Assembly: GCA_963725235.1 (NCBI GenBank) | Contig: CAVRXN010000003.1 | Coordinates: 75,204-139,203, forward strand | Length of the DNA stretch: 64,000 bases | Reading direction: 5' to 3' | Origin: an uncultured bacterium | Lineage (GTDB): Bacteria > Patescibacteriota > Minisyncoccia > UBA6257 > 2-01-FULL-56-20 | Shown here: positions 2,222 through 49,139 of the stretch, piece by piece | Layout: every line of letters begins with the position of its first letter | How positions within the stretch are numbered: the stretch's first letter is position 1 | Translations under genes and position numbers: made by a program | Notes under the pieces: model-generated | The model's database searches: none | Told to the model about the DNA's origin: nothing | What the model saw: the letters and a program-made list of their open reading frames with translations, nothing else

Positions 2222-5200
2222 CTACGGCAGCTGCGGAATCGGAAGATTGAGCGACGAGCACATGATCAAGTTGATCCAGCGCTGGGTCGTCTTATAGACA
2301 TACTCCGTCGGCGTATACTCCGTCGGTAAGCCATAATTCAACCATGGCCGAAGCACTTCAATGTGGTACTTCACCTGGAACTGATCCACTGCCGCGATAG
2401 TCTCTGGACCATAGTAGCCGGTAATCGGTAAGGTTGTTCCCAAATTCATGTTCAAGAACGTCTGCAATTTATCCACTTCCGCAGGACTGTTGAGGTCTTT
2501 GCGAATCGGATGGATATACTGGTCGAGATAGATGCCGCAGCTCGCCGATGCGCCGAGGACTTGGCCTCCGCCATTTCCTCCGCCACCGCCTGAGCCACCG
2601 CCTCCACCGACCGTCGTACTGCCTCCACCACCCCCTCCGCCTCCACCGCCACCTCCACCGTTCGAACCGCCAACCGTAATGGTCGCGCTCGCGGTATTGT
2701 TACCGGAAAGCGGATCATTTACCAATGCTGTATTCTCGCCAACCGTCGCGGTGTTCGTGATGACATCGCCGATCGGATCGGATGAGTTAACGGTCGCCGT
2801 AATGACGAGCGTCGGGTTTGCATTCGGAGCAACATTGCCGAGCGTCCACGTTCCCGTGGTGCTGGCATATGTTCCCGCCGAAGAGCTCGCCGAAACAAAG
2901 GTCACGCCAGCAGGTAAGGTATCGGTCGCCACTACGCCCAGTGAAGAGTTCGGGCCGATGGCCTGAATCGTCAATGTGTAATGGATCGTATCGCCAGGAT
3001 TCGGTGTCGCGTTATCTACTGACTTCGTAATGCCAAGTTCGGCAGTCGGGAATCCACCGCCCCCACCTCCACCGCCCCCACCACCGCCTCCGCCGCCACA
3101 ATTGCTCGTGCAAGGCGCCGGCTGGACATTGATGGAAACAGAAGAAGAAGTGACCGAGAGATTCGTCTTGACGAGCGAACTCAGCTGCGAAACCGTAGCC
3201 GTGTTCGTAATCGTCTGGCCGTCATACGCAGAACTTACCGTCGCCGCGAGAGTTAACGTCGCCGTTGCATTCGGTGAGAGTGTTCCGATTGTCCAGTTAC
3301 CTGATGACATATCGTACATGACTCCATCCGAAGTCGTGGCGGAAACTAAGCTCAAGCCCAAGGGTAATTGATCCTGCACGTTAACGAACGTCGAAGTCGC
3401 CGGACCAAGCGCGGTAACGGTAACCGTATAGTTTACCGTATCGCCGCCGGCCGGATTCGCGTTATCAACGGTCTTTGCGATCGTGATATCCGCGTCGGTT
3501 GACGGGGTCGTTGTCGTCGTCGATGACGCGAGAGTGAAAATCACTGAACACGTCATGTTCGCCGAAAGCGTTCCCGAACAACCGCTCGACGTCGCCACCG
3601 AATAATTCGGCGCGGTCGTCGTCGCCGTCAACGCATACCGATCATTCGTCGGAAGGACGAAGGTCGAGCTGCCATTGCCGATCGAGGTTGCCTGCGTCGT
3701 TGACGCAGTCGGACCAAGGTCCGCAACCGAAATCGCAGCCGTGTCGCTCGCGTTCAAGCCGCTAACGTTTACCATCAGCGTGCTCGTCGCAGGCGTTGGC
3801 GTACCACTACCACCGCCACAATTCGACGTACAACCCGTCGTCTGCACCGTAATCGGCACCGAAGAAGAGTTGTTGCCCAAATTGTTATCGGAGGAAGAAG
3901 CTGATTCGCCAACGATCGCCGTGTTCGTGATCACTTGTCCGACCGTGTCGGACGAGTTGACGAGCGCCGCGATATTCAACGTTGCCGTCGAACTGGCCGA
4001 CAGATCGCCGATCGTCCACGTTCCCGTGGTCGTTGCATAACTGCCAACCGATGCCGTTGCATTCTCGAACGTAAGTCCGGAAGGCAACGTATCGGTCGCA
4101 ACAACGCCGGTCGACGTCGCCGGGCCAAGAGCTGAAACTGTTAACGTATAGTTAACCGTATCGCCTACGACCGGCGTCGAATTGTCAACTGTCTTCGTGA
4201 TCGAAAGATCAGCCGAAGGAGTCGAGGTCGAAACGCCCGTACACAACGGAGCTGAACTAAATGCATACTTGAGTACAAACGGGACGTTCGGATACCCATA
4301 CGGATTGCTCTCCAACAGCGTCGCCGGAGCTTCGCCGTAATAGGCATCGACTTGCGCCATGCATGATGGCAAAGCGACCGTCAACGTCTGTGTCGAACTC
4401 GCCGCAACCGAAGATGATGCCACGCTGAAGAGTTGTTGGCTGGAAAGCCAATTGGCAGCTCCTCGCGGAACAAACATTTTGTAGGCAGCCAAGCTGATCG
4501 GCGCCGTACAGCTCGTGTGGTTCGTCAACGTGAATGATGCCGTGGTTGAAGCCAACGAAACATTCGCAAAGCTGATCGAACCGCTCGCAACCGCCGCCTC
4601 AAAAGCGCTCGCGGAAAGCGTGCACGGAGTCGAAGTCGGCGTGGTCGTCGCCGTCGTTCCCAAGAATTGGTTGAGGACGACGAGCGTGCGATCGGGGCGC
4701 GTCGTAAGAAGTTGGATGTCGCCATCCGCATTCAAGTTGCGCGCCGCATCGTTCGACGAAGTGCTATCGAACAGCTGTCCACTGTACGAATAAACATCCG
4801 AAGTCGTGCTCGCAGCGATCGTATCCTGGTCATTATACTGCGGCGTCGCCCATTCGCTCGAAGAGCTCGTGATCGATTCCTGCCCATAGTAATAATGCCC
4901 AATCGCGAGATTGCTGTATGTCATACACTGCGCGTTATTCGTCGAAGAGCCAAACAGTTTGGCATTAAACGCCAACGGTGTGGTGAACGTACTTGTCGGA
5001 AGCGTACCGATAGCGAGCGGTGTCGAAGATGGTACCGAAGAAATTCCCGGGACCATAAAGGTATTCCCCGGAAATGCCGATCCATCAACGATCGTGCCAC
5101 TCGCGTTTTCGATCACTTTGCAAATTGTGATCGAACCGTTATTCACGGGTGGTACGTTTGGCTGCACGGTAATCGAAACGCTCGATGAATTATTCGAAAG

Positions 5201-6106
5201 ATTCGAATCAGTCGTCGAAGCGCTTTCCGCCACCGTCGCGGTATTCGTGATCGTCGTACTCGCAGTTCCGGAGTTAACCGTTGCCGCGATATCGAGGATC
5301 GCTTTCGAACTGACGCCCAAATCGCCGATCGTCCACACGCCAGTCGAACTAACGTACGAACCATCAGTCGAAGTCGCCGAAACGAACGTAACGCCCGAGG
5401 GCAAAACATCCGTCGCAACAACGCCAGTCGAAGTCGCCGGGCCGAGAGCTGAAACTGTTAACGTGTAGTTAACCGTTTCACCAACAGACGGCGTAGAATC
5501 ATCGACCGTTTTCACGATCGAAATATCCGCAGACGAAATCGTCGATGTCGGCGTCGACGTAGACATCTGGCAAAGATGGCCCGACGTAAATGTCGAGTCA
5601 ATCAGATAAGGCACCGTCAATACATCCGACGGCGTAACCGCATCGCTCCCGAATGAGAGCGGCGCATTCCCGTACCAGACATCAACCTGCGCTTTGCACG
5701 AAGGCAGTGCGACGGAAAATTCCTGATGGCTATCCGGAGCAATCAAAGAAGATGTCGCGTCGACAATCTGCTGAGTTGAAAGCCAACCGGCAGACGGCTG
5801 ATCGATGAAAATCTTATACGATGACATGCTGACCGGAACGCTGCATTGTGTAGTATTATTCACCCGAAACTTGGCAATGCCAGGATTCGAAAGATTAATG
5901 CCAGTAATGCCAAACGTAATCGAACCGTTCTGGACCGCAGCAACGTAATCGGAAACCGACAGCGTGCACGGCGCGACCGTCGTCGAGGTCGTCGACGTCG
6001 CAGTCGATGTCGCATCAGCGTGCGCAAGCGGCACCATGCCACCCGCCGCAACCGCAATTGCGAGACCAACAAAAACTAAAACTAGCCCAAAGTAAAACTT
6101 TTTCAT
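2222..6106 (-). CDS. giant secreted surface protein with DUF11 repeats, poly-Gly linkers and a C-terminal peptidoglycan-binding domain
   Basis: 1294-aa ORF with a signal peptide (MKKFYFGLVLVFVGLAIAVAA). At least four DUF11-type repeats (VNYTLTV.ALGPATSTGVVATD.LPSG.TFVSA...G.WTIG.L...NNSSSV.ITVQ). A duplicated Cys-containing N-terminal module (CTLSVSDYVAAVQNGSITF / CTLSASAFEAAVASGSISF). C-terminal PG_binding_1-like motif (GYYGPETIAAVDQFQ). Confidence 0.85.
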   Translation of the reverse strand: MKKFYFGLVLVFVGLAIAVAAGGMVPLAHADATSTATSTTSTTVAPCTLSVSDYVAAVQNGSITFGITGINLSNPGIAKFRVNNTTQCSVPVSMSSYKIFIDQPSAGWLSTQQIVDATSSLIAPDSHQEFSVALPSCKAQVDVWYGNAPLSFGSDAVTPSDVLTVPYLIDSTFTSGHLCQMSTSTPTSTISSADISIVKTVDDSTPSVGETVNYTLTVSALGPATSTGVVATDVLPSGVTFVSATSTDGSYVSSTGVWTIGDLGVSSKAILDIAATVNSGTASTTITNTATVAESASTTDSNLSNNSSSVSITVQPNVPPVNNGSITICKVIENASGTIVDGSAFPGNTFMVPGISSVPSSTPLAIGTLPTSTFTTPLAFNAKLFGSSTNNAQCMTYSNLAIGHYYYGQESITSSSSEWATPQYNDQDTIAASTTSDVYSYSGQLFDSTSSNDAARNLNADGDIQLLTTRPDRTLVVLNQFLGTTATTTPTSTPCTLSASAFEAAVASGSISFANVSLASTTASFTLTNHTSCTAPISLAAYKMFVPRGAANWLSSQQLFSVASSSVAASSTQTLTVALPSCMAQVDAYYGEAPATLLESNPYGYPNVPFVLKYAFSSAPLCTGVSTSTPSADLSITKTVDNSTPVVGDTVNYTLTVSALGPATSTGVVATDTLPSGLTFENATASVGSYATTTGTWTIGDLSASSTATLNIAALVNSSDTVGQVITNTAIVGESASSSDNNLGNNSSSVPITVQTTGCTSNCGGGSGTPTPATSTLMVNVSGLNASDTAAISVADLGPTASTTQATSIGNGSSTFVLPTNDRYALTATTTAPNYSVATSSGCSGTLSANMTCSVIFTLASSTTTTTPSTDADITIAKTVDNANPAGGDTVNYTVTVTALGPATSTFVNVQDQLPLGLSLVSATTSDGVMYDMSSGNWTIGTLSPNATATLTLAATVSSAYDGQTITNTATVSQLSSLVKTNLSVTSSSVSINVQPAPCTSNCGGGGGGGGGGGGGGGFPTAELGITKSVDNATPNPGDTIHYTLTIQAIGPNSSLGVVATDTLPAGVTFVSASSSAGTYASTTGTWTLGNVAPNANPTLVITATVNSSDPIGDVITNTATVGENTALVNDPLSGNNTASATITVGGSNGGGGGGGGGGGGGSTTVGGGGGSGGGGGNGGGQVLGASASCGIYLDQYIHPIRKDLNSPAEVDKLQTFLNMNLGTTLPITGYYGPETIAAVDQFQVKYHIEVLRPWLNYGLPTEYTPTEYVYKTTQRWINLIMCSSLNLPIPQLP
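2563..2672 (-). repeat. low-complexity Gly-coding tract (GGN repeats)
   Basis: Encodes GGSNGGGGGGGGGGGGGSTTVGGGGGSGGGGGNGGG inside the giant ORF. Appears as a poly-Pro shadow ORF on the + strand. Confidence 0.85.
3054..3098 (-). repeat. low-complexity Gly15-coding tract
   Basis: Encodes CGGGGGGGGGGGGGGGF between two DUF11 repeats. Confidence 0.85.
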
Positions 6107-33701: not shown

Positions 33702-33801
33702 CTGCGAGGATGGGATTCGAACCCATACTTTTTTCTTTCAGAATATTCTGCAGAGAAAAATACTCTGAAAGGAAAATGTGCTGCCATTACACTACTCCGC
33801 G
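33702..33801 (-). tRNA. aberrant tRNA-like gene with an extended (roughly 19-bp) anticodon arm
   Basis: Good T arm (ATGGG-TTCGAAT-CCCAT) and D arm (GTGT-AATGGCA-GCAC). The anticodon position holds TTTTC-CTTTCAGAGTATT-TTTCTCTGCAG-AATATTCTGAAAG-AAAA. Acceptor CGCGGAG/CCTCGCA pairs at only 5 of 7 positions. Confidence 0.45.
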
Positions 33802-46386: not shown

Positions 46387-46674
46387 ATGGCAGAAGAAAA
46401 AAAGAATGGGAACGGAAAAATGATGGGCGGCGGTATGACGTGCGGCTGCGGATGCAGCGGCTTCGGACACCACTGGACGTTCTTCCTCCTCCGCACGCTG
46501 ATCACGATCATCATTTTAATGATGGTATTTTGGTTCGGCGTCGTCGCAGGAAGATTGGGCAGCGTGCGCGGCGGCTACATGGTTCGCTACGGCTACGCGA
46601 CTCCGGCAGGCGCAGGCGGCATGGGGATGCCGATGATTCCCGCATCGTCGACATCAGGCACAGCCGGTTACTAA
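46387..46674 (+). CDS. small Gly/Met/Cys-rich membrane protein (95 aa)
   Basis: Start chosen at MAEEKKNG. Contains a CGCGCSGFGHH motif and one TM helix. Confidence 0.45.
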   Translation: MAEEKKNGNGKMMGGGMTCGCGCSGFGHHWTFFLLRTLITIIILMMVFWFGVVAGRLGSVRGGYMVRYGYATPAGAGGMGMPMIPASSTSGTAGY

Positions 46675-46697
46675 TCGGCGCGGCAATTTTGCAAAAC

Positions 46698-46728
46698 AAA
46701 AATCCACTCAACGCGAGTGGATTTTTGT
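46698..46728. terminator. bidirectional terminator
   Basis: AAAAATCCACTC-AACGC-GAGTGGATTTTT. Confidence 0.75.
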
Positions 46729-46752
46729 TTGTTCACAAACTTCACGGCGCAG

Positions 46753-47086
46753 AGCCGATGGCCGGAATTGAACCGGCGACCTACTCCTTCATTTGCACCT
46801 CAATTTCGATCGGCACGCGCCGCACGCAGCGCCGCCAAAACTTATATGAGGATTAGACTGTATCTTACGCATGCCGCGAAATCGCTTTCGCGTTTCGCAG
46901 GTTAGCGCCCCTTGTCAGTCGTTCGGGCAAACGCAAGCTCAGAACGAGCTCCGCCGCCACGGTCTTAACCTCGCCAAACCACCAACAAGGTCTTTAACCG
47001 TAATTCAGGTTTCATCACACCGTTTCCGGCGCAACAGGCAATTATGAATCACCATGGAGTTGCTCTACCAGCTGAGCTACATCGGC
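46753..47086 (-). tRNA. tRNA-Thr (anticodon GGU) interrupted by a group I intron
   Basis: Exon 1 is 47086-47051 (GCCGATGTAGCTCAGCTGGTAGAGCAACTCCATGGT). Exon 2 is 46789-46753 (AAGGAGTAGGTCGCCGGTTCAATTCCGGCCATCGGCT). Joined, they give a 73-nt cloverleaf with loop ATGGTAA. Confidence 0.8.
46790..47050 (-). ncRNA. group I intron (261 nt, no ORF)
   Basis: P1 is GGT|GA-TTCATAA-TTGCC with U-G at the splice site. P7 pairing GACTG...CAGTC, with the conserved GTAAGATACAGTC element. The 3'-terminal base is G (...GCAAATG). Confidence 0.75.
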
Positions 47087-47128
47087 AACCCTAGAAGAAT
47101 ATGCCAATTGGAAGAATTATTCAACTTG

Positions 47129-47200
47129 AGCCGGAGAGAGGAATCGGACCTCCACTCTTTCGCTTACAAAGCGATTGCTTTACCATTAAGCTACTCCGGC
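47129..47200 (-). tRNA. tRNA-Thr (anticodon UGU)
   Basis: Reverse complement is GCCGGAGTAGCTTAATGGTAAAGCAATCGCTTTGTAAGCGAAAGAGTGGAGGTCCGATTCCTCTCTCCGGCT. Anticodon loop TTTGTAA. Confidence 0.88.
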
Positions 47201-47233
47201 AAATACTCGCCTCTTATTAATACTCGAAATCGG

Positions 47234-48025
47234 CTACACAGTCAAAACCCGCGACCCCTCCGCCGTAATCGCAACCGTATGCTCGAAATGCGCGGCGACC
47301 GAGCCGTCGCGCGACGCATAGCTGTCATCGCGCCGGACGACCGTCGCACCGCCGTTCTTCGCAGAAGACGCGATGACCATTGGCTCGATCGCAATCGTCA
47401 TCCCCTCCTCGAGCGGCTCGCCCGTGCCGCGTTTACCGAAATTAAAAACCGCCGGGTCTTCGTGGAGCTCTCGACCAACGCCATGTCCGATCAATCCTTC
47501 AGCGACAGAAAATTTTGCGCGGCGGACGACCGCTTCAATCGCGGCACCGATATCGCCAATCGTATTGCCAACCTGCGCTTCTGCGATGCCGGCAGCGAGA
47601 GCTTCCTGCGTTGCTGCGATAAGTTTTTTCGCTTCGCGGCTCTCCTTCGAATCGCCGCCGCGACCACTGCCGACCAAAACCGTAACCGCCGAATCCAAAT
47701 ACAATCCTTTATAGATGAGTCCGAGATCAAGTTTTATTAAATCGCCATTAACCAGCGCGTAATCCGACGGCTGGCCGTGGACAACAACCTCGTTCAACGA
47801 GGTACATAATGTATACGGATATTCGCGCTTCGCACCGGCCGGGAAATAATGCAAAAACGCCGGCTTCGCGCCAAGCTTATGGATCATCTGATACGCAATA
47901 CGATCGAGATGTTTCGTCGTCACGCCGACCGCAACCTCACGCTCAAGCGCACGCAAAACTTCAGCCAAGCGCTTGCCGCCCTCCGCCATAACTTCTATCT
48001 CAGCCGGTGTTTTTATTGTAACCAT
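47234..48025 (-). CDS. map: type I methionine aminopeptidase
   Basis: 263 aa: VVHGQPS, DLGLIYKGLYLDSA, GHGVGRELHEDP, IAIEPM, HFEHTV. Confidence 0.93.
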   Translation of the reverse strand: MVTIKTPAEIEVMAEGGKRLAEVLRALEREVAVGVTTKHLDRIAYQMIHKLGAKPAFLHYFPAGAKREYPYTLCTSLNEVVVHGQPSDYALVNGDLIKLDLGLIYKGLYLDSAVTVLVGSGRGGDSKESREAKKLIAATQEALAAGIAEAQVGNTIGDIGAAIEAVVRRAKFSVAEGLIGHGVGRELHEDPAVFNFGKRGTGEPLEEGMTIAIEPMVIASSAKNGGATVVRRDDSYASRDGSVAAHFEHTVAITAEGSRVLTV

Positions 48026-48573
48026 GCCTGATATCTATTAATCACCATCTCGATAACCTGTTGCAAATTATGCACCCCGGTATCGATAACGAGATCATAA
48101 TTTTTTACATCCGTGAAATCAATATGATATAAATCGCTGAACCGTTTTTTCTCACTTTCAATCCTCTGGAGAGTATTCTCGAGTAATTGGCCGGGCGATG
48201 AAGCAACCTGGCTCACGCGTTTGCCCTCTTGAATTTGCGCGAACATCCGCTGCGCGGCAATAGATGGGTCAAGCGAAAGAAAAACCTTAAACGAGTCCAG
48301 CATCCAATGGAAAGCAGTCCGCGAATCAACGACGAAATTATCGTTGTCTTTGCCGAGATGAATCAGAAAATCATCAACACCGCGATCAATCTCTTGCTGC
48401 CCCTCGGCCACCGCATTCATTTTCTCGATCGAAATACCCCGTTCTGCAGCCATCTTCCGAAACAGGTCGCCGGAAGAAAAATGTTCGTATCCAAGCTCGC
48501 GAGCGATGCCTGTCGCAGCACTCGATTTTCCACTTCCCGGAACACCTGCAATGGTAATGATGTGTTTTTTCAT
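48013..48573 (-). CDS. P-loop nucleoside-monophosphate kinase-like protein (cytidylate-kinase-like)
   Basis: 186 aa. Walker A IAGVPGSGKSS. Overlaps the adk stop and the map start. Confidence 0.65.
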   Translation of the reverse strand: MKKHIITIAGVPGSGKSSAATGIARELGYEHFSSGDLFRKMAAERGISIEKMNAVAEGQQEIDRGVDDFLIHLGKDNDNFVVDSRTAFHWMLDSFKVFLSLDPSIAAQRMFAQIQEGKRVSQVASSPGQLLENTLQRIESEKKRFSDLYHIDFTDVKNYDLVIDTGVHNLQQVIEMVINRYQAWLQ

Positions 48574-49139
48574 GCCCCGAGCGCTGCATCAACTGCTTTC
48601 TCAACCTCATCCGGCGTAGACCGCCCATCGATCTCGATAAATTTCGTCTGCTCTTTCAAATATTCAATCACCGCCGGCATCGTCTCGTCGTAATATTCAA
48701 ACCGCCGCTGGATCGCAACGGTTGTATCATCGAGGCGCTGCTCGTTCTGCGCACGCAAAGCCAACCGCTTAACAGAATCCTCGCGCGGCAAGTTAATAAA
48801 TACGGTCGCCATCGCACCATACCCGCGACCAAGCAAAAACGGAACGAGAAACTCTGCCTGCCCAATCCGGCGCGGCACGCCATCAAACACAATACCCTTA
48901 CTCGTCGGCACGCTCGCCAGCCGCGCTTTTAATATTTCTATAATAACTTCGTCGGGCAACAACGTCCCATCATTTAGCAACTTGATCTTCTGGGCAAACT
49001 GGACATCCGACGCCTGAATCTGCCGCAAAATGGCGCCCATCCCGAAAAACAAAAAACCCAGCTTGTCCGCCAGTTTCTTGCCCTGCGTGCCCTTGCCCGA
49101 TCCCTGCGGCCCGGCAATGAAGATAATTTGGAAGTCCAT
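48570..49139 (-). CDS. adk: adenylate kinase
   Basis: 189 aa: IAGPQGSGKGTQ...GAILR...FDGVPRRIGQAE. Confidence 0.9.
   Translation of the reverse strand: MDFQIIFIAGPQGSGKGTQGKKLADKLGFLFFGMGAILRQIQASDVQFAQKIKLLNDGTLLPDEVIIEILKARLASVPTSKGIVFDGVPRRIGQAEFLVPFLLGRGYGAMATVFINLPREDSVKRLALRAQNEQRLDDTTVAIQRRFEYYDETMPAVIEYLKEQTKFIEIDGRSTPDEVEKAVDAALGA

Follow-up and report, generated by a model that had tools for sequence, protein, structure and literature searches.

The DNA analyzed here is a window of 64,000 nucleotides (nt) from an uncultured bacterium (contig CAVRXN010000003.1 of assembly GCA_963725235.1, positions 75,204 to 139,203), on the minus strand of which a transfer RNA (tRNA) gene, tRNA-Thr(GGU), is interrupted in its anticodon loop by an insert of 261 nt. 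The minus-strand gene order at this locus is secY, adk, a second kinase gene, map, tRNA-Thr(UGU), the split tRNA-Thr(GGU) gene, a hairpin followed by a U-tract, rpmG and tRNA-Trp; all window features described below lie on this strand. Exon 1 (47051..47086; GCCGATGTAGCTCAGCTGGTAGAGCAACTCCATGGT), recognized from the sequence and by ARAGORN, covers tRNA positions 1–36 and ends in ...ACTCC-AT-GGT, its 3' end being the anticodon GGU. The insert (46790..47050), reading GATTCATAATTGCC...GCAAATG from 47050 to 46790, lies between tRNA positions 36 and 37 and is followed by exon 2 (46753..46789, positions 37–73, likewise called by ARAGORN), which starts with AA-GGAGT. The joined exons form a canonical 73-nt cloverleaf with acceptor stem GCCGATG/CATCGGC, anticodon stem ACTCC/GGAGT and loop AUGGUAA, which ARAGORN calls tRNA-Thr(ggt). 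In its intron mode, the same program reports tRNA-Thr(ggt) i(37,261) for the genomic sequence, and both default ARAGORN and the Rfam tRNA model missed the split gene in the window. The splice junction is unambiguous because a shift of either boundary by 1 nt alters the mature sequence. No open reading frame (ORF) of at least 40 amino acids (aa) was found on the sense strand of the insert, and its minimum free energy (MFE) fold is more stable than those of shuffled sequences (z = -3.5). A preliminary description of this DNA had proposed two tRNA halves 261 nt apart on the minus strand, joined to the same cloverleaf around an ORF-less group I intron in tRNA-Thr(GGU), and had recommended intron-aware ARAGORN as a check; its boundaries were borne out to the base.

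In order to compare alleles of this gene, the DNA around the nearest Map homologues (L001–L005) was retrieved, with Map identities to the window of 88% (L001), 86% (L002), 84% (L003) and 77% (L004 and L005). The best named homologues belong to Candidatus Paceibacterota, and the host is therefore a member of the Patescibacteria, also termed candidate phyla radiation (CPR) bacteria. Homologous introns of 241 nt (L002) and 254 nt (L003) occupy the identical site in tRNA-Thr(GGU). In L001, L004 and L005 the gene is uninterrupted, and its junction, CCATGGT-AAGGAGT, equals the predicted ligation product; intron-less alleles of this kind had been suggested as a subject for a survey and were thus found. 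Exon 1 is identical to the 5' half of the L001 tRNA, and removal of the intron restores the host gene, with anticodon arm and junction matching the intron-less orthologues. In the alignment of the window, L002 and L003, the core strands of the intron are identical, with substitutions and indels confined to peripheral hairpins. The window intron shares 81.5% identity with that of L003 and 74% with that of L002, and the flanking genes map, adk and secY share 80–88%, in keeping with co-divergence inside the clade. In the equally close L001 the intron is exactly absent, which points to a recent clean loss or gain.

For further family members, a collection of species-representative genomes was scanned with a gapped pattern derived from the J6/7-P7-P3' and J8/7-P7' strands of the core. 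At least 120 loci carry the pattern, and nearly all of the matches listed originate from Patescibacteria, namely Saccharibacteria, Paceibacterota/Parcubacteria, Yanofsky-, Komeili-, Uhr-, Wolfe-, Lipton-, Peregrini-, Doudna-, Azam-, Harrison-, Jorgensen-, Nomura- and Taylorbacteria. Of the 120 listed loci, 111 fall within split tRNAs according to intron-aware ARAGORN, and the remaining nine are truncated at contig ends. Boundaries were re-derived from the anticodon stem with a terminal G as a requirement, and on this basis all complete loci among the matches listed (111/111) represent tRNA-Thr(GGU) with the intron at 36/37, a U as last exon nucleotide, U(-1), in 111/111 and a terminal G in 111/111. 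Their introns measure 175–266 nt (median 196), so that the window intron, with 261 nt, stands at the long end of the family. Additional hosts with GNN anticodons, i.e., Arg(GCG), His(GUG), Pro(GGG) and Leu(GAG), were rejected, since they represent ARAGORN boundary slips of 1–3 nt. The intron mode of this program misnames approximately 45% of the Thr(GGU) genes in L006–L125 as Arg(GCG), His(GUG), Pro(GGG), Leu(GAG), Phe(AAA) or similar. A scan of viral contigs for the core pattern gave 0 matches. Five intron loci (L010, L034, L049, L051 and L066) were observed in metagenome-assembled genomes labelled Pedobacter, Gammaproteobacteria or Bdellovibrionales, one of them on a contig of 637 kb; these may represent mislabelled or misbinned CPR contigs and not family members from outside the Patescibacteria.

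A secondary-structure model comprising the paired regions P1 to P9 was drawn on the window intron and mapped to an alignment of 112 introns made with plain MAFFT, without structural fitting. The model contains 45 pairs in nine helices arranged in canonical order, with the P3/P7 pseudoknot and the P4-P6 stack. Standard pairs occupy 93.8% of the cells, as compared to 30.9–43.6% when the 3' partners are slid by 1–3 columns. Changes on both sides were recorded for 25 of the 45 pairs, a value that none of 500 shuffles reached (ignoring phylogeny), and compensatory changes are abundant in the intron part of P1 and in P2, P5, P8 and P9, with further ones in P3 and P6. The expectation that P3 to P9 fold around the previously proposed P7 thus agrees with a covariation-supported model. 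Moreover, the P1 pairing (GGU followed by GA, with UUGCC and a U.G wobble), the P7 pairing GACUG/CAGUC within the element GUAAGAUACAGUC and the final G, all noted in the preliminary description, are present.

P1 (47037..47053) pairs G34, G35 and U36 of the exon and G1 and A2 of the intron with the guide UUGCC, placing the U36.G wobble at the 5' splice site. Its exon pairs were recovered throughout the 112 sequences (G-C in 112, G-C in 112 and U.G in 111), and both intron pairs co-vary. The match of the three-base guide to the GGU anticodon plausibly accounts for the single host tRNA of all family members found. P2 (47014..47035) consists of 9 bp, each of them showing compensatory changes (9/9), and is capped by the GAAA tetraloop L2 (47026–47023), which belongs to the GNRA type in about 108 of the 112 sequences. 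For P3, the 5' strand CCUG (47006..47009) pairs with 46914–46909 in 100% of the cells, a C-G pair being replaced by U-A in L074 and L100. The stretch 46959..47001 holds P4 (ACGGU/ACCGU), which encloses J4/5 (UAAA), P5 (GACCU/AGGUU with loop L5) and J5/4 (AAG). The five P4 pairs are invariant in the 112 sequences although they lie outside the search pattern; being invariant, they carry no covariation. Compensatory changes were found in four of the five P5 pairs. The P6 hairpin (46926..46958), with a GGC...GCC base, adjoins P4 directly, and its basal GG/CC changes to CC/GG or U-A in other members. A sixth P4 pair, U49.G93, was considered and rejected: it is paired in 43 of 112 sequences only, and G93 pairs with C125 in P6, where it co-varies. 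The assignment of G93-C125 to P6 and not to P4 therefore leaves a 5-bp P4 stacked directly on P6.

In the 3' half of the core, the R element (46909..46925) comprises J6/7 (CGAAC), the P7 5' strand GACUG, J7/3 (A) and the P3 3' strand CAAGGG, resembling the RF00028 consensus UUCAaAGACUAAAcGg; it does not vary in the family, in part as a consequence of the search pattern. P8 (46867..46908) has a GCGC/GCGU base with compensatory changes in three of four basal pairs, an internal loop (CUAAC.../...GCAUG) similar to a GAAA-tetraloop receptor and a GAAA-capped extension. The receptor-like loop (CUAAN...YANG) occurs in 35 of 64 sequences with a GAAA L2 and in 2 of 48 with a different L2 (Fisher p ~3e-9, ignoring phylogeny). 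Based on this association, L2 and P8 would form a tertiary brace such as compact bacterial group I ribozymes are expected to have. The S element (46856..46866), consisting of J8/7 (AAGAUA) and the P7 3' strand CAGUC, shares 10 of 11 positions with the RF00028 consensus AAGAUAUAGUC. P9 (46798..46851; CCUCA/UGAGG with a peripheral extension) shows compensatory changes in 5/5 pairs, and the terminal guanosine (omega G) at 46790 precedes the 3' splice site, as it does in the listed family members. For the P, Q, R and S elements (J3/4-P4, P4'-P6, J6/7-P7 and J8/7-P7'), the window reads AAUUACGGUUAAAG, GACCGUGGC, CGAACGACUGACA and AAGAUACAGUC, and the RF00028 consensus reads AAUUGCGGgAAAc, AuCCGCAGCC, UUCAaAGACUAAA and AAGAUAUAGUC, a likeness judged by eye and unscored.

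These features were also considered with regard to an insertion of another kind, such as an archaeal-type bulge-helix-bulge intron, a group II intron, a small mobile element or a chimeric assembly of two tRNA fragments. The lack of any Rfam family matching the insert would be in keeping with such an origin. However, the insert of 261 nt has neither a domain V-like element nor an ORF; terminal repeats and a target duplication are missing, and the joined tRNA is exact. The site 36/37 is not the 37/38 position that PMC4090602 gives as canonical for protein-spliced archaeal and eukaryotic tRNA introns. Furthermore, the same architecture recurs in independent assemblies from many studies, and the P1–P9 fold is backed by covariation. 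This explanation is effectively refuted, its residual probability being negligible.

It is also very improbable that the copy in the window is an inactive relic, i.e., a tRNA pseudogene in a genome that obtains its tRNA-Thr(GGU) from another gene. Room for such a relic is left by the view of only 64 kb of the genome and by the indirect nature of the evidence for splicing. In contrast, the exons are identical to those of intron-less orthologues that are functional and occupy the same syntenic position, and U(-1) and omega G are retained throughout the complete loci listed. The core strands are invariant and the helices show compensatory changes across more than 100 species, which indicates selection on the fold. 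In addition, intron-plus and intron-less copies of one anticodon seldom share a published genome.

Several results weigh against the interpretation of the insert as a group I intron of this family and have to be considered alongside the evidence above. RF00028 gave no match to the window intron, neither at the gathering threshold nor at E<=10, in stretches of 601 nt and 281 nt, and 0/16 family members tested reached the gathering threshold of 50 bits. The best sub-threshold score, 23.1 bits (E 0.0012 in a small search), was obtained for the Thr intron of L027, where the confidently aligned columns correspond to J8/7-P7'-J7/9-P9. P7 and the P3 3' strand do not vary, but this is in part due to the pattern used for locus finding, which required both strands, and it is uninformative for that reason. 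The shuffle and Fisher statistics ignore phylogeny, and a second, intact Thr(GGU) gene is possible outside the 64 kb of genome in view. Moreover, splicing has been tested only for Asn and Asp 35/36 introns, and none has been reported for the Thr class (Nakagawa 2026, PMC13011429). Finally, a covariance model, R1, built on the core region P3 to P7' in 50 introns of the family, scored only 15.1 bits (E 0.15, not significant) on an Rfam-recognized tRNA-Tyr intron in L027, so that no sequence link to canonical group I introns reaches statistical significance.

The same R1 model, from which the window, L002 and L003 had been left out, produced a single match in the 64-kb window at 46852–47013 with 87.9 bits (E 1.3e-19), and no match in the intron-less loci L001 and L004. 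The match lies far above chance, with the reservation that the members had in the first place been recovered through a 23-nt motif of the window. According to these scores, membership of the window intron in the Thr family is secure, and this family is clearly divergent from introns of the RF00028 type. During the 16-locus run, RF00028 did detect another intron in L027 at 61.9 bits, and this model therefore works in these genomes. This second intron lies at 4707–4931 (+) of L027 (Candidatus Yanofskybacteria, MGKE01000010.1), about 110 nt upstream of the Thr(GGU) intron. From its flanks (...GCAGACUGU and AAAUCUGC..., with a long variable arm), its host was read as tRNA-Tyr(GUA), interrupted at 35/36, a gene absent from the calls of ARAGORN in intron mode. 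The Tyr and Thr introns of L027 therefore represent two different intron lineages in adjacent tRNA genes. The preliminary description had regarded a missing RF00028 match as grounds for rejecting a group I intron. The match is indeed missing, but the conclusion does not follow, because RF00028 is documented to miss this class (PMC13011429), and the miss was reproduced on 16 homologous loci. None of the 12 sequences of the RF00028 seed is bacterial (Williams 2020, 10.1101/2020.01.27.920355).

Based on these results, the 261-nt insert is, with high confidence, interpreted as a group I intron in what is apparently the organism's tRNA-Thr(GGU) gene, belonging to a Patescibacteria-specific, RF00028-negative family inserted at 36/37. 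The earlier group I reading is thus backed by the intron-plus and intron-less alleles, the covariation of P1 to P9, U(-1).G, the terminal G and the published class. The analysis directly shows the exon/intron boundaries, the homology, the conservation of the fold and the existence of exact intron-less alleles; we infer catalysis, the use of a guanosine cofactor, the docking of L2 in P8 and co-transcription with tRNA-Thr(UGU).

In the proposed course of events, the precursor tRNA would be transcribed together with the upstream tRNA-Thr(UGU). The anticodon bases G34, G35 and U36 would pair with the guide 5'-UUGCC-3' to form P1 with its U36.G wobble, and the core would fold into the coaxial P4-P6 stack and the P3-P8/P7 pseudoknot, L2 (GAAA) being docked in the receptor-like P8 loop. 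An exogenous guanosine bound in P7 would then attack after U36, and the terminal G (46790) would subsequently take over the G site. The free 3'-OH of U36 would attack before A37, and ligation of the exons would yield a mature tRNA reading ACC and ACU. A37 and A38 of exon 2 could pair with two guide bases only. The exons are probably aligned by the anticodon stem, as in other pre-tRNA introns.

A further possibility is that the intron derives from group I and no longer self-splices efficiently, relying in vivo on a protein cofactor of the host to fold or to be catalytic. The divergence of this RF00028-negative family, with long branches in the published tree (PMC13011429), a P1 with just three exon base pairs, a predicted P10 of at most 2 bp and the lack of reported in vitro splicing for the Thr class would be compatible with such dependence. 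On the other side, conservation and covariation are seen in the full core and in the tetraloop-receptor braces, which are typical of small autonomous bacterial ribozymes. Patescibacteria possess reduced proteomes, and no maturase or homing-endonuclease ORF is located inside the intron. In addition, related Asn and Asp tRNA introns of Patescibacteria self-splice in vitro (PMC13011429). Cofactor dependence is accordingly considered improbable, although somewhat less so than an inactive relic.

Regarding the genomic context, the intact tRNA-Thr(UGU) gene (47128..47200), identified by tRNA scans, lies 41 nt upstream of tRNA-Thr(GGU); its presence had been noted previously, with a gap of 43 nt that needs correction. 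Downstream of exon 2, a hairpin with a U-tract (AAAAAUCCACUC-GCGUU-GAGUGGAUUUUUGUUUUG; 46692..46727), read from the sequence, is likely the intrinsic terminator of the tRNA transcription unit. A promoter/terminator scan of 46600–47300 listed no promoter-like site, nor did it list this hairpin, probably because the T-run sought by the scan is taken up into the A/U-extended stem. Codons ACC and ACU account for approximately 29% of the Thr codons in long ORFs, and tRNA-Thr(GGU) is needed for this reason.

Two adenylate-kinase-family genes are arranged in tandem in the secY-map interval (48013–49139). This arrangement is kept in all relatives fetched, where both genes have ADK/AAA_17 Pfam matches; in L003–L005, one of them also shows weak matches to the cytidylate kinase family. 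Between map and tRNA-Thr(UGU), the window has 33 nt only and no gene. Relatives contain at this position a gene of approximately 180–190 aa without a Pfam match (4855–5427 in L002, 4834–5376 in L003 and 4834–5385 in L004), which is absent from the window. In L001, an inserted Cas1 gene and a 458-aa gene (3101–5287) separate map from the two tRNA-Thr genes; this rearrangement is likewise absent from the window.

Apart from this locus, a stand-alone tRNA-like gene was observed at 33702–33801, for which the Rfam tRNA model scores 44.6 bits and which default ARAGORN misses. Its anticodon loop carries a 29-nt insert, which is too short to be a group I intron. ARAGORN in intron mode designates it "tRNA-Stop(tta)", and UUC or UGA would be possible with boundary shifts. 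The MFE fold lengthens its anticodon arm to a 15-bp hairpin, and the acceptor stem is mismatched. A promoter-like pair (TTGCAT-17-TAAAAT) is located directly upstream. Searches of 125 CPR loci and of viral contigs yielded no homologue, and a metagenome scan returned nine unrelated tRNAs only.

The intron-split gene is easily missed or misnamed as Arg, His, Pro or Leu, with the consequence that CPR genomes seem to lack tRNA-Thr(GGU) or to contain odd tRNAs. This distorts completeness estimates and the inference of codon usage for CPR bacteria. New in this study are the base-resolved, covariation-supported fold, the evidence for the L2-P8 contact and the census of at least 111 species-level genomes, all with Thr(GGU) as host; knowledge of intron kinds or mechanisms remains unchanged by the finding.

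Whether the family constitutes a distinct, deeply diverged group I lineage outside the established subgroups, tied to the GGU anticodon, distributed across classes of the Patescibacteria and devoid of a homing endonuclease, is a tentative proposal that we consider rather unlikely. If it were true, the family would represent an analogue of the ancient cyanobacterial tRNA-Leu intron, with vertical inheritance and repeated precise losses. It would be far more prevalent than the published cases imply and might couple tRNA-Thr maturation to the availability of guanosine nucleotides in minimal cells.

Among known systems, the bulge-helix-bulge introns of Archaea and Eukaryotes also interrupt the tRNA anticodon loop, one position away (37/38), and differ in lacking a ribozyme core and in being removed by a splicing endonuclease and a ligase. 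They are usually short. Introns of this type have not been reported in bacteria (PMC13011429). The classical IC3 introns reside in Leu(UAA) at 34/35 (cyanobacteria and plastids), Ile2(CAU) at 36/37 (Azoarcus), Arg(CCU) at 36/37 (Agrobacterium) and fMet at 33/34. They resemble the window intron in their location in the anticodon loop, which for Ile2 and Arg is exactly 36/37, and in the use of anticodon bases as the exon side of a short P1. Likewise, they are small and ORF-less, with P2 present, no P5abc, GNRA tertiary braces and an anticodon stem holding the exons. They differ in host tRNA and phylum, and they were found by the Intron_gpI pass of Williams, whereas the window family is RF00028-negative. 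The presence of P2, the absence of P5abc and the L2-P8 brace resemble IC3-like compact introns and are not diagnostic of a subgroup.

Insertions P7.1/P7.2 occur in the subgroups IA1 and IA2. In the model presented here, P8 follows P3' directly and leaves no room for P7.1/P7.2, and the published tree places the three Thr introns on long branches within an IA clade, no Patescibacteria tRNA intron being assigned to IC (PMC13011429). The Asn(GUU), Asp(GUC) and Tyr(GUA) 35/36 introns of Patescibacteria (IA) share phylum, anticodon loop and a mostly ORF-less state with the window intron; in contrast to it, they are inserted one position earlier and are RF00028-positive. Self-splicing in vitro is documented for those in Asn and Asp (PMC13011429).

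The closest counterparts are the introns at 36/37 of tRNA-Thr(GGU) in three complete Patescibacteria genomes listed in Table 1 of Nakagawa et al. 2026 (mSystems, PMC13011429), termed "divergent group I introns", an expression taken from Castelle et al. 2018 (Nat Rev Microbiol). All three were missed by RF00028 and found by the gpI_bact_tRNA model of tFind (Williams 2020), and ARAGORN miscalls two of them as Arg(GCG) 34/35 (PMC13011429), a miscall reproduced here. For Patescibacteria, tRNA genes that tRNAscan-SE, ARAGORN and tFind miss are also reported (PMC13011429). The published introns agree with those described here in phylum, tRNA, anticodon, site, U(-1), omega G, the lack of an ORF, the negative RF00028 result and a size of approximately 180–260 nt. 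By their published description, to which and not to the sequences themselves the comparison refers, they show no difference in kind. The preliminary description had regarded Thr(GGU) and the 36/37 site as unusual. Yet 36/37 is a common site (PMC13011429), the classical Arg(CCU) and Ile2(CAU) introns share it as loop position "5Ug", and the number of interrupted tRNA types had already been raised from 4 to 21 (Williams 2020, 10.1101/2020.01.27.920355). In view of the published Thr(GGU) cases and the classical 36/37 introns, neither the site nor the host tRNA is therefore new. The intron class and its host tRNA are thus already described, and the family is far commoner in Patescibacteria than the three published cases, with at least 111 species-level genomes recorded here compared to three complete genomes in Nakagawa 2026.

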